From a virus (Duplodnaviria > Heunggongvirae > Uroviricota > Caudoviricetes), in IMG/VR virus record IMGVR_UViG_3300032257_000002, positions 1 to 64,000 of that record: DNA of 64,000 nucleotides. One strand, given 5' to 3'. The notes beneath the pieces were generated by a model. That model searched no databases, had not been told where the DNA came from, and saw only the letters and a program-made list of their open reading frames with translations. Below, piece by piece: positions 1 through 29,373 of the stretch. How positions within the stretch are numbered: position 1 is the stretch's first letter; every line of letters begins with the position of its first letter. The position numbers and the translations under genes were made by a program.

Positions 1-582
1 CAACGATTGTAGTAGCACGACCGTCGATATATGGAAGTTTGTGGGAGTGAAGTTCTTTGTTCAGTACAAGTTGTAGTGTAGCTTGACGTACATCGAGTGT
101 AGAACGATTGAGTTCATCCAGGAATAGTACCGAGTGACGAGACTTCGTACAGCTAACTGTTGAGTCTTTTGACAAGATGTGAAAATAGTCATTTACTTTA
201 TCGTAGTAGTTACAGTAAAGTTCATTGAATGTTTCACGATTTACAGTAGTTGATAACTGTTCTTTGGCAAACTTTTCGAAGTCAGCGTCTGCGAATACGA
301 TGTCTTCTAAGTTGACTGATGTAGGCCATGCACGATTGATAATACGTGAATACCAGTCTGGTGCACTCCATACAGTAGATTGCATACCTGCGATGTTTGC
401 AGTACGAGGAATACCGATAAGGTCACCAGTATCCATCATAGACAAGAAGAGCTCTTCTAGATGATAGTTGTTTTCTTTAGCGAACTGTTGAACAATGGCG
501 GATTTTCCGATACCGTGCTTTCCTTCGAAAAGGGCTGTGTCATCTGCAAGATGAGATGCTGTAAGTAATTGTAGGGCTTGAG
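1..582 (-). CDS. AAA+ ATPase, MoxR/AAA_5-like (N-terminal portion; 3' end of gene runs past window start)
   Basis: Minus-strand ORF starting at ATG (CAT 580-582) with AAGGAAAC RBS. It translates MNIPQALQLLTASHLADDTALFEGKHGIGKSAIVQQFAKENNYHLEELFLSMMDTGDLIGIP, with Walker A GKHGIGKS. It is absent from the ORF track because it is open-ended. Confidence 0.65.
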
Positions 583-635
583 GGATATTCATTGGTGTTT
601 CCTTTTTAATAAATTTGGGTTAGCGAAATGCGGGA

Positions 636-997: not shown

Positions 998-1270
998 TTA
1001 AATATAAATTTCTGGAAATAGTGTTGGTGGTAGTACTAATTTCTGTACATCAGTAGCTGGTATTGATTTATCTGGTGTAGCTATTTTAAGTGCAAAGTCA
1101 TGTAATGGGGACCAAAAGCTATGACCTTCTTTAGTGGATATCCATTCGAATATATCGATAATAGCCATTACATTCCATGTTTTTTCTGTACGTAAAATAA
1201 CATTTTGTTGAAATTGTGGATACCAGTCTTGAGTCTTAGCCCAATCTAGTTGCTTCTGTAGTTCTTCCAT
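998..1270 (-). CDS. small protein of the C-terminal 'PE-tail' family (ends ...FPEIYI)
   Basis: ORF track; start overlaps the upstream stop (TAATG); shared C-terminal motif. Confidence 0.55.
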   Translation of the reverse strand: MEELQKQLDWAKTQDWYPQFQQNVILRTEKTWNVMAIIDIFEWISTKEGHSFWSPLHDFALKIATPDKSIPATDVQKLVLPPTLFPEIYI

Positions 1271-1515
1271 TAGATCTCCAATTCTGGGTAGTGTGCTTTA
1301 ACGTAACTGATTAAAATATTTTGACGATCTTCTCCGTTTTTACAGGAGAATTCACAAATTTGGCACGGGATGTCATTACACATAGCAGAGTAGGTAGTAT
1401 TGTCTTCGGTACTTGTGACTAAGACATGATAACTGAATGTAAGGTCTTCATCTACAAGCTGTTCAGCTTTTGTGAATACGTGAAATGGGTAGTCTAGTTT
1501 GTTTGGTGGTTTCAT
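1270..1515 (-). CDS. small Cys-rich protein, PE-tail family (ends ...HYPELEI; C-x4-C-x2-C-x3-C)
   Basis: ORF track; ATGA/TAATG coupling with its neighbours. Confidence 0.55.
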   Translation of the reverse strand: MKPPNKLDYPFHVFTKAEQLVDEDLTFSYHVLVTSTEDNTTYSAMCNDIPCQICEFSCKNGEDRQNILISYVKAHYPELEI

Positions 1516-1730
1516 ATTAGTGTCTCTGGATAGTGTTTTAAGATGTCGGATAATGGAGCTACTGGAAATAGGTTGTTAATGTTATAGTAACCTTCACCTT
1601 CATAATCTTCATAATCATCAGAGTGAAAATCATATGCTTCAGTCTTGTTCTGTATTGAGTAAATGACTGTAAAACGATCAGGGTTAGAACGTACTTGGCA
1701 GAAGTAAGGTAGGTTTTTGGTCCAATTCAT
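1512..1730 (-). CDS. small acidic protein, PE-tail family (ends ...HYPETLI)
   Basis: ORF track; 4-nt overlap with the downstream gene. Confidence 0.55.
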   Translation of the reverse strand: MNWTKNLPYFCQVRSNPDRFTVIYSIQNKTEAYDFHSDDYEDYEGEGYYNINNLFPVAPLSDILKHYPETLI

Positions 1731-1738
1731 GATAATCC

Positions 1739-2020
1739 TTAAATGAAATATTCTGGGTGAGTGATTTTTAAAGCTTGGAATTCAGGTTGATTTTCAAGAG
1801 CTTCAAATAACAAAGTTCTACAGTTATCATCAGATGTGTATAATGGGCATTCACTGCAGTCTAAATTTCCGCACGTAAAACTTTTTAATACAGTTGGAGG
1901 TTTATGAGGTATTAATGATGTTTTATAAATAAATGCACCACCACTAGCCTTGAATGGTGTATCGTAGATGTCTACTGATCTTCCATTAAACGTAGTGGTT
2001 AGGAGTAGATTACTTTTCAT
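1739..2020 (-). CDS. small Cys-rich protein, PE-tail family (ends ...THPEYFI; C-x4-C-x2-C)
   Basis: ORF track; stop followed by GGATTATC-ATG RBS of the next gene. Confidence 0.55.
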   Translation of the reverse strand: MKSNLLLTTTFNGRSVDIYDTPFKASGGAFIYKTSLIPHKPPTVLKSFTCGNLDCSECPLYTSDDNCRTLLFEALENQPEFQALKITHPEYFI

Positions 2021-3242
2021 TCTTCAGTTTGATAGCGGACATACGGCCTGCGTTCATTGAATCCATAATCTGACCTTCACTAGTAATAAGCCAAATGATA
2101 GGCTTATTAGTAGCTTTGTATGCAGCAACGTCAGACTCATCAATGTAACCATCGGTGATAACCACGATAACTGTAGCGTTGATCTTCGCTTCTTTAAGTT
2201 TAGCGATTGCAGGTGATAGAGTAGTTCCTCCGCAAGCCGAACGTTTGAAGGTTCGCTGTGAGCGCTTAAGAATATGTGGTTTATGAGCTTGTGTGTCTAC
2301 TGGAACATACCATACTTCAGTACCTAGTGATTTACAGATATGTATACATTCACCGATAGCGGATACTAGTTCAGTGTTGGATACAGAACCTGATTCATCT
2401 CCGACAATAACAGGATCAGCTATGTGATCTTTTGTTTTACCTTTGATGTGCTCGAAGTTTGGATTACGTCGATCTCTACGAAGGATGGTTTTTCGGAAAT
2501 TGGCTTTCTTATTAGACACGTAACGTTTAAATTTTTTCTTCCAGTCAACTTCTGACTTGCGAGAGAACATGTTAAGGTAGTCAGAAATTTGGCCAGGTAC
2601 ATCACCACGTGATTTTTGAGTTTCATTAACTGCCTTTTCGATCATGTTTCGAGTAATATCTTTTTGGAGATCTGCGTCACCCTCTGATTCTTGCCATTTA
2701 GAGTGATCATCTAATGGTCCAGGTTTTCCAGTTCCAGGTCCAGTTTGTTCATCGTCTTCAGGTAACTGATCTTTGTCGATGTATTCGTAGTATTGTTCGC
2801 CGGATAATTTATCAGGAACCTTAGTCTTACTAGGTAAGGTAGCAGGTATGATACAGCCTTGTGGTAAATGTTTTTGATCAATGAGCTGATTGATAGCACA
2901 GTCTGTAGCGTAGTTCCAAGCCTTGTGGTTTCGGTCTTCTTTTCGACCTACATGACCATTAAGTATGTGTAGCATTTCGTGCTTCAGTACGGCTAGTCTT
3001 TCTTCAAGTGTGAACTCATCGAAGAGCTCTGGATTGATGTGTAGTTTGTAGTGATCTAAGTGAAAAGATACAGCAGCTGGTGCTTTCATACGTTCAAGTA
3101 CTATAGAGCATTGTCCGATCATATGGCCGTAAAATACATAAGTGGTTTGATAACTGTCGCCAGAAAACATGTTAGCTAGTGCTTCGTTTAATTTTTCTCT
3201 ACTTAAAGGTTTTTGGGTGGTATTTTTTTGTTCATTTTCCAT
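2010..3242 (-). CDS. VWA-domain protein with N-terminal HExxH zincin-like domain (DUF2201-like), partner of the MoxR-type ATPase
   Basis: HEMLH zincin motif at aa ~88-92. C-terminal vWA MIDAS-like DESGSVS...TDG. Immediately upstream of the AAA+ gene. Confidence 0.7.
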   Translation of the reverse strand: MENEQKNTTQKPLSREKLNEALANMFSGDSYQTTYVFYGHMIGQCSIVLERMKAPAAVSFHLDHYKLHINPELFDEFTLEERLAVLKHEMLHILNGHVGRKEDRNHKAWNYATDCAINQLIDQKHLPQGCIIPATLPSKTKVPDKLSGEQYYEYIDKDQLPEDDEQTGPGTGKPGPLDDHSKWQESEGDADLQKDITRNMIEKAVNETQKSRGDVPGQISDYLNMFSRKSEVDWKKKFKRYVSNKKANFRKTILRRDRRNPNFEHIKGKTKDHIADPVIVGDESGSVSNTELVSAIGECIHICKSLGTEVWYVPVDTQAHKPHILKRSQRTFKRSACGGTTLSPAIAKLKEAKINATVIVVITDGYIDESDVAAYKATNKPIIWLITSEGQIMDSMNAGRMSAIKLKNEK

Positions 3243-3943
3243 AATGCCTCCTGTGCATAGTTAATAGGATTTTTAATCAGTATTTCTGAATTACTGGTAT
3301 GTTTAAATATTTTACTGCCTTTATACTTATATTGGTGTAAGTTTTTTAATAGCAGCTTTTCAAGGGTCCAAGCATCTTCTCCATTAAAAAAATGTTGTTC
3401 AAAAATTATTTTATAGCTAGTTCCTTCTTGCTTATACCTTTCGTTTATTTGACGAGAAGTAATCCCTATTTTATATTTACCAGATTTTGGTAAGTACAAT
3501 ATATAAAAAATAGTTTTTTTATTTTTATAGTACGACTTTCTGTAAGCATTAAAATTTTTATTACAAAGAGGGTAACCTCTACCGCGTATATGGTGAGTGG
3601 CTGCTTGCCAAAAACTTCCATGAGTATTGCAGATAATTTCAACTTTTGTATTACGGTTTACGTATTTTACTTTTGAATAATCATAAATGTTATTATGCTT
3701 TTTAGTAGCTAGTTTTAAGAAATCATTTTTAGTGTTTTTCTTATTTACTTTTATTCGTCCGCATGTTGGGCATCCTTGTTTTTTACCTATATGTGCGTAT
3801 CCTACTTGGTTAAATTTGCCGTGTATGGGGCAAATAATATCATACTTATCACTAATAGTAGTAAAATTTGCTATATTGTAAGTATACTTGTTGTTATGAG
3901 CAATATTAGCTTTTTCAATAAAAGTATCTTTAGTGTATCTCAT
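3203..3943 (-). CDS. putative homing endonuclease (T5orf172/GIY-YIG-like C-terminal domain with duplicated N-terminal CxxC Zn-finger modules)
   Basis: FYILYLPKSGKYKIGITSRQINERY resembles the T5orf172/GIY-YIG core. Two C..H..C-x2-C modules. Very AT-rich and Lys-rich. Confidence 0.5.
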   Translation of the reverse strand: MRYTKDTFIEKANIAHNNKYTYNIANFTTISDKYDIICPIHGKFNQVGYAHIGKKQGCPTCGRIKVNKKNTKNDFLKLATKKHNNIYDYSKVKYVNRNTKVEIICNTHGSFWQAATHHIRGRGYPLCNKNFNAYRKSYYKNKKTIFYILYLPKSGKYKIGITSRQINERYKQEGTSYKIIFEQHFFNGEDAWTLEKLLLKNLHQYKYKGSKIFKHTSNSEILIKNPINYAQEALWKMNKKIPPKNL

Positions 3944-4083: not shown

Positions 4084-4341
4084 TTATATTAGTAGTTCAG
4101 GATGCTGTTTTTCAAATGCTTCCTGATCGAAGGTTTTTAGAAATTCGGCGTATGGCGGGTATCGTGGTTCAAAAAGGCATACGAATTCGTTGTGACCTTT
4201 AAGTTTTGCTTTACAGTCTTTGCATCTATAGTTTATAGGTTCGAGTAATCTACAACTGCTAGTCGTAACATCTTTATCAGAATCTAGTGTATGGTAGACT
4301 TCTTTAAAAAGTTCCATAAAGTTGTCAGGTAATTGTTCCAT
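4084..4341 (-). CDS. small Cys-rich protein, PE-tail family (ends ...KQHPELLI)
   Basis: ORF track; C-terminal motif. Confidence 0.55.
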   Translation of the reverse strand: MEQLPDNFMELFKEVYHTLDSDKDVTTSSCRLLEPINYRCKDCKAKLKGHNEFVCLFEPRYPPYAEFLKTFDQEAFEKQHPELLI

Positions 4342-4349
4342 AGTAAATC

Positions 4350-4592
4350 CTAAATAGTGAGTTCTGGGTAGTCTTCGTAGATTTGTGGAAAAAATGTATA
4401 TAAAGTTAGTTCATGGCTACATTCTTTCTGAATTGGGCATAAGCTACATAAACATCCATTACATTGAGAATAACAACCATTACTTACTACAACATGAAGC
4501 TCATTTCTTTTAAATTCTAAGTCGTCTAAGTCATTAACAGTAGAGTACACGTATAACGGGTAGTTAAGATCGTCTCGTGAATATAAAAGCAT
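4350..4592 (-). CDS. small Cys-rich protein, PE-tail family (ends ...EDYPELTI)
   Basis: ORF track; 8 Cys in 80 aa. Confidence 0.55.
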   Translation of the reverse strand: MLLYSRDDLNYPLYVYSTVNDLDDLEFKRNELHVVVSNGCYSQCNGCLCSLCPIQKECSHELTLYTFFPQIYEDYPELTI

Positions 4593-4599
4593 GTGAATC

Positions 4600-4821
4600 C
4601 TATATAAATAATTCTGGATGAGTGATTTTCAATGATGGGATGTAACGATTAGCGATGATACCTGCGTTTGTAGATATTAGACATTTAGCAGTAATGGTTT
4701 CTAGAAATGGGCAAGTTTCGCAAGGTTGATCATAACAAAAAACTTGAGTAATTTGAGATGGATCGTATACTAAAATACCATCAATGAAGCCTTGTAAGAC
4801 TTCATCTCGAGTAAGTTGCAT
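4600..4821 (-). CDS. small Cys-containing protein, PE-tail family (ends ...KITHPELFI; C-x4-C-x2-C)
   Basis: ORF track; start abuts the upstream stop. Confidence 0.55.
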   Translation of the reverse strand: MQLTRDEVLQGFIDGILVYDPSQITQVFCYDQPCETCPFLETITAKCLISTNAGIIANRYIPSLKITHPELFI

Positions 4822-6778: not shown

Positions 6779-6914
6779 CGTTTTTGTATTTCTGTTTACG
6801 AGAGTAAGTTTTTTTAGATTTAATAGTCTTTGTCTGAAGATTGACTTCACGTTTGTAGTTTTTACAGATAGTGTGGTCACGTTTATTGTAAGATTTGTTA
6901 CTCATAAGATTCCT
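6779..6914 (-). CDS. small very basic protein (45 aa, MSNKSYNKRDHTICKNYKREVNLQTKTIKSKK...)
   Basis: Manual translation. The ATG is preceded by the conserved TAAGGAATCTT RBS. Below the ORF-track size cut-off. Confidence 0.35.
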
Positions 6915-7147
6915 TATATAAAATATTCTGGATATATAGTAGGTAAGTCTTCAATGGAAGAAAAAGAACAAAGTATTTCTGCTTTATGTCTAGTACAGAA
7001 ATTATCTAAGGATTTCCAGTTTTTACAATTACCTATATAAGTAGATGCTGCAATGCAGTCAGGTACAGTAACATTGAATCCTGTAGTGTCATGAACAGTA
7101 TCACAATAAATGTTGTAGCCGTTTTTGTAGGTAACTAGGTGGTACAT
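6914..7147 (-). CDS. 77-aa Cys-containing protein, PE-tail family (ends ...TIYPEYFI); paralog of the next gene
   Basis: ORF track; begins MYHLVTYKNGYNIYCD like its neighbour. Confidence 0.55.
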   Translation of the reverse strand: MYHLVTYKNGYNIYCDTVHDTTGFNVTVPDCIAASTYIGNCKNWKSLDNFCTRHKAEILCSFSSIEDLPTIYPEYFI

Positions 7148-7155
7148 TGTAGTCC

Positions 7156-7389
7156 TTATATAAAATACTCAGGATGTTCTTGTTTTAAAGAACTTACGGA
7201 GTCAAAAGTAGTCAGTATTTTAGGAGTATACGTTTTTTCAAACTGTTCAAATGATTCCCAATCTGGAGTAGAGGATATAGATTGAATGCTGTTAATACAT
7301 TTGTTAAGGGTATAATAAGCACCTGTAGTGTTGTCAGTTACATCACAGTAGACGTTATACGCGTTTAAATAAGTTACTAAATAATACAA
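7156..7389 (-). CDS. 77-aa protein, PE-tail family (ends ...QEHPEYFI); paralog of 6914..7147
   Basis: ORF track; MYYLVTYLNAYNVYCD... aligns along its length with the neighbour. Confidence 0.55.
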   Translation of the reverse strand: MYYLVTYLNAYNVYCDVTDNTTGAYYTLNKCINSIQSISSTPDWESFEQFEKTYTPKILTTFDSVSSLKQEHPEYFI

Positions 7390-9568: not shown

Positions 9569-9805
9569 TTAAATAAATAGTTCAGGATGTAAAGTTTGTA
9601 GTTCTTCGAAAGATTCTATAGGTGTTTTGTTGATGAGTAATCCCGGTTGTTTATAGTTGTTTTTCCAATCCCAAGATAGTTTTGAGTGTATCATCATTTC
9701 TTCTAGATCTGATAATTGTAAGCATAAACCAGTATTTGAATTTAATTCATGCAATAAATACTGTTCCATTTCTTCGTGATAGAGATTATATTTTCTTGAT
9801 GTCAT
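9569..9805 (-). CDS. small protein, PE-tail family (ends ...LQTLHPELFI)
   Basis: ORF track; stop followed by AGGAACATC-ATG of the Pnkp-like gene. Confidence 0.55.
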   Translation of the reverse strand: MTSRKYNLYHEEMEQYLLHELNSNTGLCLQLSDLEEMMIHSKLSWDWKNNYKQPGLLINKTPIESFEELQTLHPELFI

Positions 9806-11951: not shown

Positions 11952-12180
11952 AGTTCTCCTTTTAATTATGTAGTATACATACTAGAACACCAGCCACTTC
12001 CTTTAACTCAAGCCTAGTGACTGATGCTCCATATGCGTACATACTTCTGCAGATTTATACGTTGGCTCTGCAAGGCCTCGATTGGTACTTTAGCGTCTTA
12101 CTCAGGACGTGTCTTAACAGTTATACTCCGATGAAGACAAATAGAGTAAGCCCGTTTTAAAGCCCTGGCTAGGCCGAATG

Positions 12181-12253
12181 TGCTTCGTACCGGAGTCGAA
12201 CCAGCGACACCATCCCTGGTTGGGGACTGCTCTTCCACCTGAGCTAACGAAGC
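12181..12253 (-). tRNA. tRNA gene (73 nt; isotype undetermined, anticodon loop appears non-canonical)
   Basis: The reverse complement gives GCTTCGT/ACGAAGC acceptor stem and D arm GCTC-AGGTGGAA-GAGC. The T arm is GCTGG-TTCGACT-CCGGT. The anticodon stem GTCCC/GGGAT encloses only a 6-nt loop CAACCA. Confidence 0.6.
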
Positions 12254-13020: not shown

Positions 13021-13095
13021 GGGCCTCATACTGGATTTGAACCAGTGACCTCCTGTTTAATCGACAGGTGCTCTAACCTATGAGCTAATGAGGCC
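13021..13095 (-). tRNA. tRNA gene (75 nt incl. extra 5' G pairing with discriminator C, His-like feature; anticodon loop CGATTAA non-canonical)
   Basis: The reverse complement gives G-1 + GCCTCAT/ATGAGGC acceptor. D arm GCTC-ATAGGTTA-GAGC. Anticodon stem CCTGT/ACAGG is perfect, with loop CGATTAA. T arm ACTGG-TTCAAAT-CCAGT. Confidence 0.6.
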
Positions 13096-19698: not shown

Positions 19699-20034
19699 GA
19701 TATCTCCTTATGGTGTGTTTGGTGTTTAGCACCTAAGAACCTTACAGAGTAAGGCTCAAAGCTGTTAACTTTATTTTTTAAATATCGTATATATAGCAGT
19801 ACCTGCTCCATAACCTGCAGGATAAGCAGATAGTAACATAGCAATGCTATGATCTATAAAGATTGTAAGCATAGCACAAACCCAAAATCCTATTACTAAA
19901 TATTCGTTAAATTTGCGCATATTAAGCCTTTTTGGTTAACCACTGGTGAATGGCGGTCGGTATAACTAGTGCTACTAGTAAACTAAGTGCGATGTAAATT
20001 TGAGTTTCAGTCATATTTTTGTTCTTATTGATTT

Positions 20035-20469
20035 TTACAGGTTGATTTTTTGTTGGATGTAGGGTTCTACTTTAGCATAGTCTTGTAGTGTAAAAGATGA
20101 TTTCTTACCTTTTTGGTTAACTAAATAAGTATCATCATACATTTTAGCAATTACATAGAAGTATGGTCGGTAGTTTTCTTTAGGTGTAAGTAGTACTATA
20201 TCACCTGCTTCAGGTTTCCAAGGACGGATGATATCTTTTACTTCTGCTGAGTATGTTAATCCCTGTGTGTACTGATTGTGTGGTATAGACCAAGCTGTGT
20301 CGGATACCATTTGAGCTAAAAAGACAGTCTTACCTCTGTAATCTAGTGCGTTGACATATACCCAATCACCTTCTTCGTAGGTTGGTTTAGGTGGTATTTG
20401 CGCCTGTATTTCTGCAAGCTGGGACTCTGTTAGGGTTATTTTGATACCATCTTCTGTTGTTATTTGCAT
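20035..20469 (-). CDS. hypothetical protein (144 aa)
   Basis: ORF track; preceded by the conserved 23-mer + RBS. Confidence 0.55.
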   Translation of the reverse strand: MQITTEDGIKITLTESQLAEIQAQIPPKPTYEEGDWVYVNALDYRGKTVFLAQMVSDTAWSIPHNQYTQGLTYSAEVKDIIRPWKPEAGDIVLLTPKENYRPYFYVIAKMYDDTYLVNQKGKKSSFTLQDYAKVEPYIQQKINL

Positions 20470-23205: not shown

Positions 23206-25200
23206 CTATGCACTAAGGAAATAGTGTGATTCTTCAATCATATCTTTAGTTGCAGTACCGTAGAATAGAGTAGGCTTTGGAGGCTTGTTGCCTTCATAGT
23301 TCTCTATAATGTGGTCGATAGCCTGCTCATAGAGACATGCATCAAATTCCACTAATAGTGAATCTTTGTAAGCTTTTCTTACAATGTGCATATCATTTGC
23401 ATGTACCAGGAAGTTATCATGCTTGAACATGCCTCCTGTGTTGTTGTTAACTAGAGCTCTGCCAACCATTCTCAATGATGTACCATCAATAGAGTGTGTA
23501 ATGTTAGCATATAGACCTCGTAGTTTGTTGGTCTTGCCTTGAGCCTTGTCGTCTCCCACTCTGCCGTATGTTGGATTACCTTTGGCATCCTTAAACATTG
23601 GCATTTCTTTGTGGATCTTAGTCTGAGTGTATGACTTCAGTGTACTGTTAGATAGAGCATACAGATCTAGAGGCACTGACTCTGTGTAAGCAATAGACTG
23701 AGCTCTGAAGCCATCTGTCGTATTCCATAGTAGAGATGTATTCTCGTTAGAAGCTACTGCTACTCCCCAATCTGCGATAGCTGAGATGTTCAGTACTTCA
23801 TTACCATATGCCTCTACCATCATAGCCTTAGCTGCTGATGTGCTGATATCAAGGACACTAGCTACTGTACGAATACTAGATCCGTGTAGTAGTGGCTGAT
23901 GGATATCTTTTGCCATCTGACGAGTCTCTAGACCTAGAGATTCCTGTAGCTTGCCGTGTGAATCCAGCTGATCTGGGTGTCCTCCGACATTAGCTCCAAT
24001 CATCATCTTAGGAGATCTGAAACCGATACCACCATGCTGTAGTCCACCATTAGTTGCATCCTCTGATAGAAGGAAGCGTGATGGTTCTTCATTATAGTAG
24101 TCGTCGATAGCTTGTGCTAGTCTACTGTTGTATAGGTCTTTGCCCATATCTCCAGTAGGTTTACGTAACTCTGCTAGGTAGTGCTCTACATTAGCGTCGA
24201 AACGTTCTTCGGCATCACTATGGTGTGTTCTACCATCAATGATAACTACCGCTGAGTATTTCAGTGCATCTGCTCCGCGATCATCTATAATTCTAGCTTC
24301 CGCTAGTTCATACAGACTAGTTTCAAAGGTCTTACCATGAGGATTGAACCCCATTTCTGTAAGATCGTAGTATGATCTAGTTCTATAGTCTAACCACATA
24401 GATAGGTAGAAGCAGTCTTCTTGTTGTAGAAGGCTAAACTTCTCTACCTGCTTACTGACGATATCGTTTAACACTAGTTTATCTATACGCACTTCACCAG
24501 TGCCTTCGATAGCGTTACGATACCATTCAGTCTGCTCTAGGTATACTCGTACTTGATCAGGATCGATATTGATCAGCTTTAGACCGATCTGTGAAGCAGA
24601 ACGAAGGTAGTCTTTCTCAGACTTGTTAAGCTTGAGAGCCTTACCTCCATTACGTACTTTCAAACGTTTCTGCATTACAGTACCTGGTCTTAGGTGAACT
24701 CCCGGAATATATAGAGATGCTTTCTCTTTGTATACTCCGAAAGAGATGAACGTAGTAGTCTTCCAGACAATACGTCCTGTCTCTTCGTTGCGTTCTTGTG
24801 TAGTCTTAGCTGTATGCTGGATGTGACCTAAGTCCATCAATGTTTGGATTATCTGGAATGCTACCATAGACCTCACTATTTCATAGTGGAAGTTGATTAC
24901 TGGTAGTGTCCCTATTTCCAAACGTATTGCAAGCTTACCTACGATTACCTGTAGGTATTCTTCATCTGCATATAGTTCGTTAAGTATCTGTACTACTTTG
25001 CCTGAGTCCATTCTGTGAATGATCCAACCAATTGCGTATGCTAGGTTATCTGTGTAACCACCTCGTAGTAGTTGACGACGTCCCTCGAATTCACGTACAT
25101 GAGATCGTACCTTTTCTACCATGTCGATGGTTGCCCATGACTGGATTAGGTCTGACTTAGCTGGCTTTGTGAATACTGGGTTTGTGTTGTTACTTAACAT
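23206..25200 (-). CDS. single-subunit T7-like DNA-dependent RNA polymerase (664 aa; single-chain equivalent of the N4 RNAPII two-subunit enzyme)
   Basis: LDYRTRSYY (T7 DWRGRVY-like), NPHG, and motif A-like SEDATNGGLQHGG. Motif B-like R..K....YG in RTVASVLDISTSAAKAMMVEAYG. Motif C FKHDNFLVHAND (T7 IHDSFGT). Confidence 0.75.
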   Translation of the reverse strand: MLSNNTNPVFTKPAKSDLIQSWATIDMVEKVRSHVREFEGRRQLLRGGYTDNLAYAIGWIIHRMDSGKVVQILNELYADEEYLQVIVGKLAIRLEIGTLPVINFHYEIVRSMVAFQIIQTLMDLGHIQHTAKTTQERNEETGRIVWKTTTFISFGVYKEKASLYIPGVHLRPGTVMQKRLKVRNGGKALKLNKSEKDYLRSASQIGLKLINIDPDQVRVYLEQTEWYRNAIEGTGEVRIDKLVLNDIVSKQVEKFSLLQQEDCFYLSMWLDYRTRSYYDLTEMGFNPHGKTFETSLYELAEARIIDDRGADALKYSAVVIIDGRTHHSDAEERFDANVEHYLAELRKPTGDMGKDLYNSRLAQAIDDYYNEEPSRFLLSEDATNGGLQHGGIGFRSPKMMIGANVGGHPDQLDSHGKLQESLGLETRQMAKDIHQPLLHGSSIRTVASVLDISTSAAKAMMVEAYGNEVLNISAIADWGVAVASNENTSLLWNTTDGFRAQSIAYTESVPLDLYALSNSTLKSYTQTKIHKEMPMFKDAKGNPTYGRVGDDKAQGKTNKLRGLYANITHSIDGTSLRMVGRALVNNNTGGMFKHDNFLVHANDMHIVRKAYKDSLLVEFDACLYEQAIDHIIENYEGNKPPKPTLFYGTATKDMIEESHYFLSA

Positions 25201-26240: not shown

Positions 26241-26259
26241 ATAAAATCCTACATGGGAG

Positions 26260-26500
26260 TTAAGTACCTTGTACGGTACCTATCTACATAGAAAGGTACT
26301 TTCAGTAGGAACCTTACGAAAATCCCTACAGTACTTAAGCACCTATATATTATTAATAAGAGAAAAAGAAGTAAACCCCTACTTTCTGGGGTATACCGCG
26401 AATCAATAAGTACCGACTGTAGGTACCTTTCTGTATAGAGATAAGTACCCACTGTAGGTACCTAACTACCTTAGATAAGTACCGTGTAAGGTACCTTTCA
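26260..26500. repeat. array of five GTACC dyad units (ATAAGTACC-N6/7-GGTACCT), about 34-bp period for units 3-5
   Basis: Units at 26262-26281, 26294-26316 (degenerate), 26408-26428, 26443-26463, 26477-26496. Inverted partial copy GTACTTAAG at 26330. Confidence 0.6.
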
Positions 26501-26688
26501 GGTAAATGGCGGTATACTTGTATAAATAGTTGAAAGGAGAAAGGTACTTGTTTACTAACCAGATAACTATCCCTGCTCCTGCCGAAAATGAAGAAGTGAC
26601 GATTACAAAGAAAAAGAAACCTAGGGAACATCTTCCTGGGTATACGCTTTGGGGTAATGGGAACACAACAAAACTTGGAGGTACTAGT

Positions 26689-27018
26689 ATGAGTGTAATC
26701 GATATGTTTATGAAACTAGGTAAGGCAGAGATGGAATTAATGAAGTTTCTTGAGAACGAGATGCGCATCAATAGGAATAATGGCGAAAAGTTAACTACTG
26801 TAGTGGAACCTTCTAAGTCAGATGAGTATACTAATTATATAAAGACTGCTATTAAGAAACATTACTCACATATGGAGTGTCTAGGTATCCTACAAAGGGT
26901 AAAACGCGGTAAGTATATGCTGAACCCTAGGTTATTCATCCCTACTAAGAATGTAGAAGAGCATATGAGAGCTTGGGATGAGCTGGAGTCAGTTGATTGT
27001 CAAGAAGAGGAGGTATAA
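26689..27018 (+). CDS. hypothetical protein (109 aa), first gene of the rightward block
   Basis: GGAGG 7 nt upstream of ATG 26689. The track's longer ORF uses a TTG inside the repeat hub. Confidence 0.5.
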   Translation: MSVIDMFMKLGKAEMELMKFLENEMRINRNNGEKLTTVVEPSKSDEYTNYIKTAIKKHYSHMECLGILQRVKRGKYMLNPRLFIPTKNVEEHMRAWDELESVDCQEEEV

Positions 27019-27212
27019 GTATGATACAGGATATAGGAGCTGCCGAAGTACGGGATATATCTACGTTCCTGGACATATTCTCTGATCTCACAGTAGAAGA
27101 ACAGTTAAAACTTGCTATGATATATACTGATGTAACGAGAGAAGTATTAATTAATTGGGTAATTAAACAGCACCCTGATGTAAAAGAAAAGTATCCGGAG
27201 TACTTCATATGA
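26997..27212 (+). CDS. small protein, PE-tail family (ends ...EKYPEYFI)
   Basis: ORF track; ATGA overlap with the next gene. Confidence 0.55.
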   Translation: MSRRGGISMIQDIGAAEVRDISTFLDIFSDLTVEEQLKLAMIYTDVTREVLINWVIKQHPDVKEKYPEYFI

Positions 27213-27607
27213 GAAGAGAAAAAGGTGGAGCCCTAGTTTATGTGTGGGGTAGTGGTGAGTGGGAATCGTTTAACAAGGGTGATAGTATACGAGGCTTGCG
27301 TAAAGGTGTTAAACGGCCGACTAAGCTGTTCGTAAGTGATAATGTAAAGGAAGACTTAAATCTACTAGTTTTTACTAGCGCCTTAGATTGGCAAACCTCT
27401 GCCGAAAATAGGATCAGTGATCTGTACAAGCCTTCTGGTAAGTATATACTACGGTATGATGTTCCGATCCAACTAGAAGAGCATCTGCTGTCTAATGAGC
27501 TGTACTATGAGCTAGGTAACGATATGATACTGTTTAGTGAGCACCTAGATGGTCCGGCAATAGATGAAGAGCTGATCATGACAAAATATCCGGAGTACTT
27601 TATATGA
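27209..27607 (+). CDS. small protein, PE-tail family (ends ...TKYPEYFI)
   Basis: ORF track; ATGA overlap on both sides. Confidence 0.55.
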   Translation: MRREKGGALVYVWGSGEWESFNKGDSIRGLRKGVKRPTKLFVSDNVKEDLNLLVFTSALDWQTSAENRISDLYKPSGKYILRYDVPIQLEEHLLSNELYYELGNDMILFSEHLDGPAIDEELIMTKYPEYFI

Positions 27608-27924
27608 TAACACTAGGTAAAGCTAAAGAACTTTGTAAACAACAGGTTAAAGTATTCGCTCTAGATAAGATAGAGAGACGAGGGATAGTAGTGTTAGAAA
27701 CTTCAGTCCTATCCGTTACATATACATATAAACCGGCAGATGAATTCTTCAAAGAGACTGATCATGTACGACTAGAGCTAGTGGAGACTAGTGATTACCT
27801 AGATGTGTTTGAAACAGAGGAAGAAGCGGTGGCATGGCTATTACATAATAAAGGTAGGATAGGCGTAGCTGGACAACAGCAGTTGAAGCTATATAGGTAT
27901 AAGTATCCGGAGATATTTGTATGA
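27604..27924 (+). CDS. small protein, PE-tail family (ends ...YKYPEIFV)
   Basis: ORF track; ATGA overlaps. Confidence 0.55.
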   Translation: MITLGKAKELCKQQVKVFALDKIERRGIVVLETSVLSVTYTYKPADEFFKETDHVRLELVETSDYLDVFETEEEAVAWLLHNKGRIGVAGQQQLKLYRYKYPEIFV

Positions 27925-28145
27925 CAGTACTCCATTTTCTACATCCGGAAGAAGGATTGAAGATAGTCTATGATGTACAGAGGTTGCAGGTACCTGCTAA
28001 CTTCAAGTCACTAGAGTATAAAGGAATGTGTGAAGTGTTATATAAACATCCCGCAGGAGGTGGAATAGATCACTGTAGAATAAACGACCCTATTATACTA
28101 CCCGAAGACGAGATGCGTAGTAAGTACCCAGAACTATATATATAA
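27921..28145 (+). CDS. small protein, PE-tail family (ends ...SKYPELYI)
   Basis: ORF track; stop followed by AAGGAAG RBS. Confidence 0.55.
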   Translation: MTVLHFLHPEEGLKIVYDVQRLQVPANFKSLEYKGMCEVLYKHPAGGGIDHCRINDPIILPEDEMRSKYPELYI

Positions 28146-28153
28146 GGAAGACT

Positions 28154-28360
28154 ATGGTAAGTAGAGAACTAGTTAGAGAATTAGACGATATGTTGGAAAT
28201 ACTTAAGAGTAATGTACTGGATGGCAGCTATCACCAAGGGTTGTATAATGGTGTGGAACTAGCTAGATCGATAATAACGGATGAAGAGGCTGTGTTTATT
28301 GAAAAAGATGGGTCTTTAGATACTAACGGCGTAACACGAAATCCGGAAAGATTTATCTAA
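28154..28360 (+). CDS. small acidic protein, PE-tail family (ends ...RNPERFI)
   Basis: ORF track; TAATG overlap with the next gene. Confidence 0.5.
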   Translation: MVSRELVRELDDMLEILKSNVLDGSYHQGLYNGVELARSIITDEEAVFIEKDGSLDTNGVTRNPERFI

Positions 28361-29373
28361 TGTTTAAAGTCAGCCATGAAAAAGTTGTAAAAGACAGACT
28401 ATACCTTATTGAGTTTAAAGATTCCACAGGCTACTACGTAAAATGTGGGAAAAGCAGCGGTGTAAGTTCTAATAAACGATTTCTATCAATAATGGAAAGT
28501 TATGTAATAGCGCATAAGGGCAACTGCGCCTATGCAAAAATCTTACGAGATGTAGAAGTTACCGAGGTATTTAAACGAGAGACCGAATTCCATCATAGAT
28601 TTGCTGGCCAGCGGCATTACCCATTCCATAGCTTTTCAGGATCGACTGAGCTGTTCACACTAACACAGGAAGAAGCGCTATTAGCTTTTGATGAAATAGT
28701 AGGTAAGCAGTACGACCGTAGTCTGTTAAAAACATGTTATAGGTGTAAGGAAACAAAGTCTACTATCATGTTCCATACCAATAAAGCAAAATCAGATGGA
28801 CTGAATCACGAATGTAAAACCTGCGTAGCTGATAAAATGAGAAGCTTTAAAGCACTACCTTATAGAATATACTGTAATCAAGTAGAACATTCAAAGATGC
28901 GTGGACATCCTACACCTCAATACACTTTTGAGGACTTTAAGAAGTGGATCATCGAACAAGACTCGTATAAAATAATGTATGAGCAATATAAAAGTAGTGG
29001 CTATGATAAAAATCTGGTGCCATCGGTCGATAGGTTGAATTCTGATAAACCTTACAGTTTCGATAATATCGAACTAGTTACTTTTGCTGAGAACATGAGG
29101 CGTCATGGTCTAGATAGGCAGAAGAGCACCGGAAACCCGGTTTACTGTATTGATAAGAATACTGGTCAAGTAATAAGTGAATTTATAAGCCAGAATGCTG
29201 CTGCTACTGCACTAGGTATAAACAGTAAAGGTATGTGTAAAAAGGTTGATACAGTTGTAACATACGGTTGGTTAGCTACTTGCGGTAACTACCAATTTGT
29301 GAGTGTTAAAAAAGCAAATAAGTTTATACGAAACGGCTGGCTTATAGACAAATTTAAGTACGCACCAAAGTAG
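28360..29373 (+). CDS. putative homing endonuclease (GIY-YIG/T5orf172-like N-terminus, HNH_3/AP2-like C-terminal module)
   Basis: RLYLIEFKDSTGYYVKCGKSS at the N-terminus. VDRLNSDKPYSFDNIELVTFAENMRRHG resembles the HNH_3 core. Also NUMOD-like NPVYCIDKNTGQVISEF. Confidence 0.5.
   Translation: MFKVSHEKVVKDRLYLIEFKDSTGYYVKCGKSSGVSSNKRFLSIMESYVIAHKGNCAYAKILRDVEVTEVFKRETEFHHRFAGQRHYPFHSFSGSTELFTLTQEEALLAFDEIVGKQYDRSLLKTCYRCKETKSTIMFHTNKAKSDGLNHECKTCVADKMRSFKALPYRIYCNQVEHSKMRGHPTPQYTFEDFKKWIIEQDSYKIMYEQYKSSGYDKNLVPSVDRLNSDKPYSFDNIELVTFAENMRRHGLDRQKSTGNPVYCIDKNTGQVISEFISQNAAATALGINSKGMCKKVDTVVTYGWLATCGNYQFVSVKKANKFIRNGWLIDKFKYAPK

Follow-up and report, generated by a model that had tools for sequence, protein, structure and literature searches.

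Why should so many unrelated small proteins of a single phage end in the same few residues? The question is raised by a stretch of 64,000 nucleotides (positions 1–64,000 of the IMG/VR record IMGVR_UViG_3300032257_000002, assigned to the Caudoviricetes; hereafter, the window), which represents a fragment of the genome of a marine N4-like phage and in which a preliminary description had noted 15 small genes whose products terminate in a shared C-terminal tail, [H/Y]-P-E-x-x-[I/V]-COOH. All 15 genes and their ends were confirmed, and only the start of the first gene of the five-gene cluster, which is more likely ATG 27021 (GGAGGT stands before this ATG) than TTG 26997, had to be corrected. As judged from sequence comparisons, the tail is selected as a peptide, stands strictly at the chain end, is portable between proteins and has a distinctive distribution among phages. 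A common partner, as suggested at the outset, is the most economical reading of these features, and we assign roughly even probability to the view that one common receptor, more likely phage-encoded, reads the tail as a portable C-terminal recognition tag, with a MoxR-type AAA+ ATPase and a zincin protein carrying a von Willebrand factor A domain (zincin-vWA) as the lead candidate. We infer the existence of such a receptor, its identity and the consequence of binding from the patterns described below.

The tail genes of the window are the following (lengths in amino acids, aa):

27021..27212, plus strand: tail gene, 63 aa (71 aa from TTG 26997), ends KYPEYFI
27209..27607, plus strand: tail gene, 132 aa, ends KYPEYFI; overlaps the next gene in ATGA, its CCG GAG also serving as the Shine-Dalgarno sequence of that gene
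27604..27924, plus strand: tail gene, 106 aa, ends KYPEIFV
27921..28145, plus strand: tail gene, 74 aa, ends KYPELYI
28154..28360, plus strand: tail gene, 68 aa, ends RNPERFI (degenerate tail)
9569..9805, minus strand: tail gene, 78 aa, ends LHPELFI
7156..7389, minus strand: tail gene, 77 aa, ends EHPEYFI; paralogue of 6914–7147 (MY[YH]L N-terminus)
6914..7147, minus strand: tail gene, 77 aa, ends IYPEYFI
4600..4821, minus strand: tail gene, 73 aa, Cx4CxxCP subfamily, ends THPELFI
4350..4592, minus strand: tail gene, 80 aa, Cx4CxxCP subfamily, ends DYPELTI
4084..4341, minus strand: tail gene, 85 aa, Cys-rich, ends QHPELLI
1739..2020, minus strand: tail gene, 93 aa, Cx4CxxCP subfamily, ends THPEYFI; overlaps the end of the zincin-vWA gene
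1512..1730, minus strand: tail gene, 72 aa, acidic, ends HYPETLI
1270..1515, minus strand: tail gene, 81 aa, Cx4CxxC subfamily, ends HYPELEI; public homologues retain the tail
998..1270, minus strand: tail gene, 90 aa, ends LFPEIYI

Given the amino-acid composition of the window, the probability that a protein ends in PE..[IV] is 3e-4, which corresponds to 0.03 expected cases per ~100 genes and to a probability of ~1e-35 for at least 15 of them; likewise, 15 tails are found among the 217 six-frame stop-to-stop open reading frames (ORFs) of at least 60 aa, against 0.06 expected. The source contig (ENA ERZ27251083 k141_1285957; 103.5 kb) extends the coverage of the window phage to 73 kb, that is, the window plus 9.4 kb past its left edge, and this additional segment carries 14 further tail genes, so that the 73 kb contain at least 29. 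Neither Pfam nor PHROGs yielded a significant match to any of the 15 window tail proteins.

Pooling of 71 tails from the window and from IMG/VR contigs yielded the consensus Phi(-13)-[DE]-[DE]-Phi(-10)-x-x-x-[Y/H](-6)-P-E-[L/Y]-[F/L]-[I/L/V]-COOH, and the conserved unit thus comprises ~13 residues instead of the hexapeptide initially proposed (an example 15-mer carrying the tail is EELKKKYPEYFI). The sequence logo is the same in phiKT1024, a T4-like Vibrio myovirus described below, where Glu is also frequent at position -3. Of the 120 copies of the strict motif in the 73,263 residues of the tail-bearing phages, 119 stand at the very end of the chain and one is internal. AlphaFold2 (AF2) models of two unrelated window members present a similar picture of the chain end. 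The 81-aa Cx4CxxC protein (1270..1515), modelled from a 14-sequence alignment with a predicted local distance difference test score (pLDDT) of 87.6, consists of three strands, a helix at residues 64–75 and a turn at 77–79, and fold searches with this model in PDB and BFVD found nothing similar. The 63-aa protein (27021..27212), modelled from a single sequence (pLDDT 81), is a helical bundle in which the tail residues 59–62 are helical (pLDDT 85–93). In both models, the tail is a short confident helix past a kink at [Y/H]-Pro.

The bodies to which the tail is attached are highly diverse. The 149 distinct tagged proteins collected from the window phage and ~10 other contigs are 42–288 aa long (median 87 aa) and acidic (median pI 5.3) and, once the tails are trimmed, fall into 124 BLAST clusters, 107 of which are singletons; the 29 tail genes of the window phage, treated in the same way, include only three paralogue pairs. 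The original statement that the proteins are mostly unrelated upstream of the tail is thereby borne out, the Cx4CxxC(P) subfamily being a genuine family. Profile–profile comparison of the multi-member clusters detected no homology across families, the best probability being 26%. When 140 pooled tagged proteins were scanned, ~18 matched at least 14 PHROG families and two matched Pfam, and in all six proteins with examined coordinates (eight PHROG families) the match ends before the tail. For instance, an 88-aa tagged protein corresponds to positions 1–69 of the 71 positions of phrog_5927 followed by a 19-residue extension bearing the tail, a 125-aa protein corresponds to positions 1–117 of the 120 of phrog_29711 plus the tail, and the matches to phrog_2251, 6306, 2650 and 10949 likewise stop short of it; no curated family (Pfam-A, PHROGs) covers the C-terminal 13 residues in these matches. 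Accordingly, the tail can be considered an add-on to domains that exist elsewhere without it.

Once present, the tail is well preserved. Recognizable homologues share 37% identity in their bodies and 70% in the last six residues, and no tail-less homologue of any tagged protein was found in the loci examined. The 132-aa tail protein (27209..27607) has a 37%-identical homologue in tail-dense contigs, and the orthologue of the 74-aa protein (27921..28145) in scaffold L046 retains the tail as KYPEYFI. The Cx4CxxC(P) subfamily is rare, with 13 matches among 1.84 billion representatives in a full HMMER scan, and these matches retain tails, in variants such as FPEMRI, YPEHQI and NPEWFI. In a 5.8-billion-protein database, a profile search with the Cys subfamily recovered essentially only the source contig, the 132-aa protein recovered only itself, and a 44-aa right-anchored tail alignment had no match, the word index having yielded only 10 candidates.

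Is it the peptide that is conserved, or a nucleotide signal that happens to be translated? In the 71 pooled tails, all four Pro codons (CCA 29, CCT 23, CCG 10, CCC 9), both Glu codons (GAA 51, GAG 20) and all three Ile codons (ATA 21, ATT 16, ATC 15) are used. The tail codons of the window phage track its genome codon usage, with the exception of a preference for TTT over TTC (p=0.007), which suggests a mild A/U preference just 5' of the next ribosome-binding site, and the motif is conserved in phage DNA of 20–45% GC. Because synonymous codons vary at about genome frequencies and the motif holds across this range of composition, selection appears to act on the peptide, as originally argued, rather than on a nucleotide signal in the tail codons. 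Some dual coding exists, to judge from the junctions with the downstream genes: where these overlap in ATGA, Pro-Glu is encoded by CCG GAG, providing a GGAG Shine-Dalgarno sequence, and where TAAGGA follows, mostly by CCA GAA; yet the constraint is on the peptide. The tail had also been described as always fused to the stop codon and the ribosome-binding site of the next gene. This nearly holds for the window phage, where the median spacer is 8 nt and the next start lies within 15 nt in 96% of the tail genes against 53% of the other genes of the same arm, but not for all phages, among which 121 of 143 tail genes are tightly coupled (~15% are not) and 6 of the 143 have no downstream gene within 120 nt. 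Such tight coupling, together with the recurrent junctions (ATA TAA GGA N5 ATG, or an ATGA overlap with CCG GAG as the Shine-Dalgarno sequence) and a mild excess of TTT and ATA, would be expected if the conserved unit acted at the level of RNA or translation, either as an AU-rich element with an embedded Shine-Dalgarno sequence or through an effect of the nascent peptide on termination, driving termination–reinitiation through the long polycistronic arrays and leaving the peptide as a by-product. We consider this explanation very improbable because of the fraction of tail genes that are not coupled and because dozens of equally compact genes at 11–23 kb of the window have no tail. Furthermore, CC.GA would provide the sole invariant nucleotides, and Leu and Tyr interchange at position -3 despite their unrelated codons.

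The distribution of the tail does not follow the N4-like group. The preliminary description had looked to N4-like phages for further copies, but tail genes are absent from N4, the Vibrio N4-like phage K479 and the Alteromonas phage PT11-V19 (50 kb each), and Alteromonas phage AD45-P1, the closest cultured relative, has ~3, one of which encodes the nucleotidyltransferase-like gp073 and adjoins the helicase gene. By contrast, the best cultured matches to the window vWA protein (44% identity) come from ~191-kb T4-like Vibrio myoviruses (phiKT1024, Pv27, phiTY18, Va1, SRILMA and TDDLMA), and in phiKT1024, of which 179 of 191 kb were examined, 79 of the 319 predicted genes end in PE..[IVLF]. These tagged genes are spread across all non-structural regions and are all annotated as hypothetical. 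At the DNA level, the pattern [Y/H]PE[L/Y]FI-TAA-GGA was found in eight IMG/VR contigs, most of them with many tandem tail genes. The motif is not mentioned in the published descriptions of Pv27 and AD45-P1, and no prior description was found in the searchable literature, whether by peptide strings or by related concepts, in agreement with the initial impression that the arrangement had not been described.

In 596 Gb of bacterial and archaeal genomes, YPEYFI followed by a stop codon occurs as ~110 singletons, which is the chance level, mostly in short off-frame ORFs, and dense clusters were found only on phage-like scaffolds binned into two metagenome-assembled genomes (MAGs). The tail therefore appears to be a phage feature rather than a cellular one, and mimicry by the phage of a host tail was rejected, given that cellular occurrences are at chance level. 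The scaffolds in question (L046, L062, L067, L107 and L134 in MAG JASFSF01, labelled ‘Ignavibacteria’, and L108 in the ‘Thermoplasmata’ MAG MUGC01000118) carry up to 15 tail genes in 7.9 kb, have a GC content of 27–35% and are almost certainly phage contigs mis-binned by composition. Real cellular proteins ending in YPEYFI were also encountered, namely 224-aa GntR/FCD-type regulators (Treponema, Lachnospiraceae, Eubacterium, Corticicoccus) and a SpoU-type methyltransferase (loci L018, L094, L101, L118 and L024); these termini probably represent convergence.

If the tail is read by a receptor, which protein could it be? Two genes of the window encode the candidates:

2010..3242, minus strand: zincin (HEMLH) plus vWA protein with a metal-ion-dependent adhesion site (MIDAS DxSGS), N4 gp25-like, PF13203/PF09967; candidate receptor or processing partner
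1..592, minus strand: 5' part of a MoxR-type AAA+ ATPase gene (428 aa, N4 gp24-like) that runs off the window; candidate partner

The HExxH and MIDAS residues (DxSGS..T..D) of the zincin-vWA protein are intact. At tblastn E<1e-4, the 73 kb available for the window phage have only two genes in common with phiKT1024, those for the zincin-vWA protein (44% identity) and the MoxR ATPase (42%). A single-protein search for vWA relatives in IMG/VR produced no match, and a query with the protein alignment succeeded, retrieving 80 loci, in which tail genes were counted within 10 kb. At least one tail gene is present at 17 of the 23 loci with a window-type vWA (at least 34% identity), compared with 3 of the 57 outgroup loci (Fisher p=8.5e-10). 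The prediction from vWA similarity also held: phiKT1024, the best cultured vWA match, turned out to be tail-rich. On a neighbour-joining tree of the vWA proteins, tail-dense lineages are interspersed with tail-poor ones, implying that the tail genes expanded or were lost more than once; a single-clade origin of the tail-dense phages was rejected, since they are not monophyletic on this tree. Phylogenetic profiling of the window genes against tail-free phages gave no signal, the early/middle region being too divergent.

In phiKT1024, the gene adjoining MoxR encodes a 379-aa protein ending in AYPEYFL, which is homologous (E=8e-11, 2e-6) to tagged nucleotidyltransferase-like proteins of the N4-like clade. 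This tagged protein is conserved in phiKT1024, AD45-P1 and contigs L005, L138 and L220; no gene for it was detected in the 73 kb recovered from the window phage.

Tail-free and tail-bearing phages share host genera, both in Vibrio (K479 versus phiKT1024) and in Alteromonas (PT11-V19 versus AD45-P1). Because of this, because the tail tracks a particular MoxR/vWA subfamily across unrelated virion types and because a search with vWA led to a tail-rich phage, we infer that the receptor is more likely encoded by the phage than by the host. As regards the partners initially proposed (a host protease or chaperone adaptor, a packaging signal, a shared processing enzyme), the pattern of co-occurrence would point to the phage-encoded MoxR/zincin-vWA pair rather than to a host factor. 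The phage MoxR and peptidase-vWA pair has been proposed, without experiment, to act as a chaperone and cochaperone with a processing role (Iyer et al., PMC7824862).

How might such a tag work? The ~13-residue tag is predicted to comprise an amphipathic helix, a kink at [Y/H]-Pro and a one-turn hydrophobic hook with a free Ile/Val/Leu carboxylate, and would have been appended in evolution to many unrelated accessory proteins and retained as their bodies diverged. One shared receptor would read the chain end and so couple the whole tagged repertoire. The N4 gp24/gp25-type pair of MoxR AAA+ ATPase and zincin-vWA (MIDAS) would be the lead candidate for this role, with the invariant Glu and/or the terminal carboxylate serving as ligand of the MIDAS metal, after which the ATPase and the peptidase could remodel, assemble or process the tagged clients. 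MIDAS sites bind a Glu or Asp of the ligand or a terminal carboxylate, as in Rea1–Rsa4/Ytm1, CbbO–Rubisco and C3b–factor B. That the tail is specifically the client-recognition code of a phage-encoded MoxR AAA+/zincin-vWA machine, marking up to a quarter of the proteome, including a nucleotidyltransferase-like enzyme, for remodelling or processing, is a tentative proposal that falls well short of probable; in a variant of it, the aromatic residue at position -6 may be modified by the tagged nucleotidyltransferase-like protein.

Several observations weigh against a tag read by this receptor. The tail is an ordered helix (pLDDT 85–93) in both AF2 models, not a floppy peptide, which would equally fit an intramolecular role. 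The link between vWA and the tail is correlative, with shared ancestry and gene exchange between marine phages as confounders, and phiKT1024 was itself found through the vWA search. Six loci with a window-type vWA (L142, L146, L147, L154, L156 and L160) have no tail gene within 10 kb, AD45-P1 has few, and most phages with a (more distant) MoxR/vWA pair, including N4 and AR9, have no tails. Finally, the tail genes are co-transcribed with MoxR/vWA, which counts against simple timed removal of the tagged proteins.

Among the competing explanations, one retains the idea of a tag but assigns its reading to a conserved host machine, the tail being either a C-degron (for Lon, ClpXP/ClpAP or FtsH, or for a phage ClpP with a host unfoldase), through which accessory proteins would persist only briefly and for a set time, or a peptide docking on a central host component, for example the sliding clamp, RNA polymerase or SSB-binding sites. 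Three non-polar terminal residues with a free carboxylate and acidic residues upstream would suit a degron, the tagged proteins are small, acidic and accessory, and AD45-P1 and phiKT1024 encode ClpP homologues. Non-polar C-termini are classical instability determinants in bacteria (ssrA; LpxC/FtsH), and were reportedly recognized as such by Parsell, Silber and Sauer in 1990. However, the absence of the tail from phages of the same host genera (K479, PT11-V19) is unexpected for a universal host factor, the tail does not match the ssrA (LAA), MuA-type (RRKKAI), clamp (QL[SD]LF) or SSB-Ct (DDDIPF) consensus, and the N4-type SSBs of the tail-bearing phages end differently, in SLFxK. In addition, the invariant Pro-Glu goes beyond the specificity of a generic non-polar degron, and ClpP was not found in the tail-dense loci examined, the coverage of which is incomplete; among the N4-like loci examined, it occurs only in the AD45-P1 subgroup. 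We therefore regard a host-read tag as unlikely.

If there is no receptor at all, the tail could be an intramolecular cap, a C-terminal helix-and-hook that closes each small domain, in which case the tagged proteins might form one ancient, explosively diverging paralogue family with only the cap still recognizable. This explanation accommodates the ordered terminal helix that follows a longer helix in the two AF2 models, the conserved hydrophobic positions -13, -10 and -6, which resemble those of a packed amphipathic helix, the regular tandem arrays with a median spacer of 8 nt, typical of duplication, and the recurrent MY[YH]L N-terminus and Cys cluster. It is quite unlikely, nevertheless, given that at least 14 PHROG families are matched and that every match with examined coordinates ends ahead of the tail, some families having reached full length by then, that the tagged proteins range from 42 to 379 aa and include a nucleotidyltransferase-like enzyme, and that no profile–profile signal links the families; nor would a cap need exact terminal placement, yet 119 of 120 copies are terminal. 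A receptor of a different kind would be a capsid shell. Encapsulins, which are HK97-fold shells, and T4 proheads pick their cargo by a short shared terminal peptide, and in N4-like phages a giant RNA polymerase already travels in the virion and is injected, so that the tail could load many small proteins into the head for co-injection, in the manner of encapsulin cargo-loading peptides or the T4 capsid-targeting sequence. This is highly improbable. In the window phage as in phiKT1024, tail genes lie in non-structural regions (replication or early), with none in the structural arm; these two types of tail-rich phage have no structural gene in common at E<1e-4; and in AD45-P1, the virion proteins of which have been analysed on gels, none of the tagged products carries a virion annotation.

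A recognition tag for a common receptor would have parallels among known C-terminal peptides. The ssrA tag read by ClpX, the SspB XB peptide, the SSB tip DDDIPF and the beta-clamp-binding motif QL[SD]LF are, like the tail, short (near-)C-terminal peptides that work on unrelated proteins and whose hydrophobic end and carboxylate are read by a partner. The tail differs from them in its invariant Pro-Glu, aromatic residue at -6 and upstream helix, and in being genome-encoded on up to 25% of phage genes and restricted to phages rather than hosts. With respect to the individual motifs, the tail, [YH]PE[LY][FL][IVL], lacks the Ala-rich or basic end of ssrA-type and ClpX C-motifs, and it has no Gln position and an invariant Pro-Glu where the clamp motif has QL[SD]LF or QLxLxL; N4-like phages encode no clamp whereas phiKT1024 does, and the tail is identical in both. 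The acidic run and I-P-F of the SSB tip are also absent from the tail, and the SSBs of N4, K479, AD45-P1 and the tail-dense contigs end in SLFxK or PLFGQK. In PEP-CTERM/exosortase signals, P-E-P precedes a transmembrane helix and a basic cluster on proteins with signal peptides; in the tail, Pro-Glu is followed by only three residues, and the tagged proteins are acidic and have no obvious signal peptide by eye (no predictor was run).

A separate observation concerns a second C-terminus. A protein of 262–271 aa in the tail-dense contigs, unrelated to SSB, ends in QLFKE or TLFKD, which suggests that the SSB-like ‘LF-K’ tip is a second shared C-terminal peptide in the same phages (L006:2919-3608, L006:5344-6132, L013:152-967 and L013:3476-4147; N4 gp45, L014:30321-31118).

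Encapsulin cargo-loading peptides, the T4 capsid-targeting sequence and peroxisomal targeting signal 1 (PTS1, -SKL) likewise use one short terminal peptide to mark many unrelated proteins for one destination; the tail, however, has no link to structural genes or shells and resides among replication and early genes, and the T4 sequence is N-terminal and cleaved. As for MoxR/vWA-MIDAS pairs (RavA–ViaA, CbbQ–CbbO, Rea1 MIDAS–Rsa4/Ytm1 and N4 gp24/gp25), the window encodes such a pair with intact HExxH and MIDAS, MIDAS adaptors recognize an acidic residue or carboxylate of the client, and pair and tail are found together in phages of unrelated types. We know of no client recognition motif for any phage MoxR/vWA. 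In genomic organization, the closest likeness is to the poxvirus ankyrin/PRANC F-box proteins, which are encoded by many tandem, fast-evolving genes and combine a variable N-terminal part with a conserved C-terminal piece that plugs into one machine; PRANC is, however, a folded domain of ~30–50 aa on homologous ankyrin scaffolds of eukaryotic viruses, whereas the tail is a 13-aa peptide on non-homologous phage bodies. Thus, shared C-terminal recognition peptides are known in biology, whereas the motif itself, its proteome-wide use by a phage and its association with MoxR/zincin-vWA appear to be undescribed.

Most phage genes are small ORFs with no assigned role, and a single 13-residue tag unites at least 29 of them in the window phage and 79 in phiKT1024, a member of a cultured, genetically accessible group of Vibrio parahaemolyticus phages (phiKT1024, Pv27, phiTY18 and Va1). 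If the receptor were the MoxR/zincin-vWA pair, this would be the first function for a gene pair whose conservation extends from N4 to jumbo phages, and the client code would amount to a pathway of proteostasis or targeting private to the virus; the tag might also be put to use in directing proteins during infection. Even as a degron or a structural cap, one C-terminal peptide reused across the proteome of a virus would represent an unusual evolutionary pattern.

The layout of the window bears on when the tagged proteins are made. The window consists of two divergent arms. The minus arm, which spans 25.2 kb down to position 1, carries genes for a fused T7-type RNA polymerase, tRNAs, ThyX, Pnkp/RNA-ligase and the N4 gp25-like zincin-vWA as well as the start of the MoxR ATPase gene; the plus arm carries small genes, then the terminase, portal and other structural genes. 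The portal is 63.5% identical to that of AD45-P1, and a megablast search with 8 kb of the window found no near-identical phage among those in GenBank. The tail genes occupy the gaps between the genes for ThyX, Pnkp-ligase, vWA, MoxR, the DNA polymerase exonuclease subunit and the polymerase, and there are none in the 11–23 kb block adjoining the phage RNA polymerase gene or among the structural genes. The tagged proteins had been referred to as early proteins. For 10 of the 15 window genes this probably does not hold, as they sit among genes of nucleotide metabolism and replication and probably belong to the middle class, and the block next to the RNA polymerase gene has no tail gene; for the five-gene cluster at 27021–28360, early transcription is compatible with the position of the hairpins described next.

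The non-coding gap between the divergent arms (26258–26499) contains at least five hairpin-forming repeats, AAGTACC-N5-7-GGTACCT, in both orientations, two of which (26406–26428 and 26441–26463) are 96% identical. These repeats are candidate early promoters of the N4-type virion RNA polymerase and/or mark a candidate genome-end region. Immediately 5' of the five-gene cluster lies the ORF 26689–27018, whose product has the C-terminus DCQEEEV. The TTG initially taken as the start of the first tail gene falls within this ORF, and an extension of the ORF itself to a TTG at 26530 is questionable.

The DNA polymerase is split in the clade of the window phage into separate genes for the 3'-5' exonuclease and the polymerase (L017:13721-14392/16597-18849; L219:1631-2320/2715-4544). 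At least one tail gene always lies between the two, the first overlapping the end of the exonuclease gene. Putative homing-endonuclease genes of the DUF723/NUMOD type are found within the tail-gene arrays (window 3203–3943 and 28360–29373; L017:15699-16643 and 20032-20354), including one between the exonuclease and polymerase genes. Two minus-strand tRNA genes were identified with ARAGORN at 12180–12253 and 13021–13094, one without a clear identity and the other a tRNA-Asn with an unusual ATT anticodon. The RNA polymerase is encoded by a single T7-like gene of 664 aa (23206–25200), where N4 has two genes for the RNAPII subunits; a similar fused gene is present in PT11-V19, and AD45-P1 has been reported as being without RNAPII.

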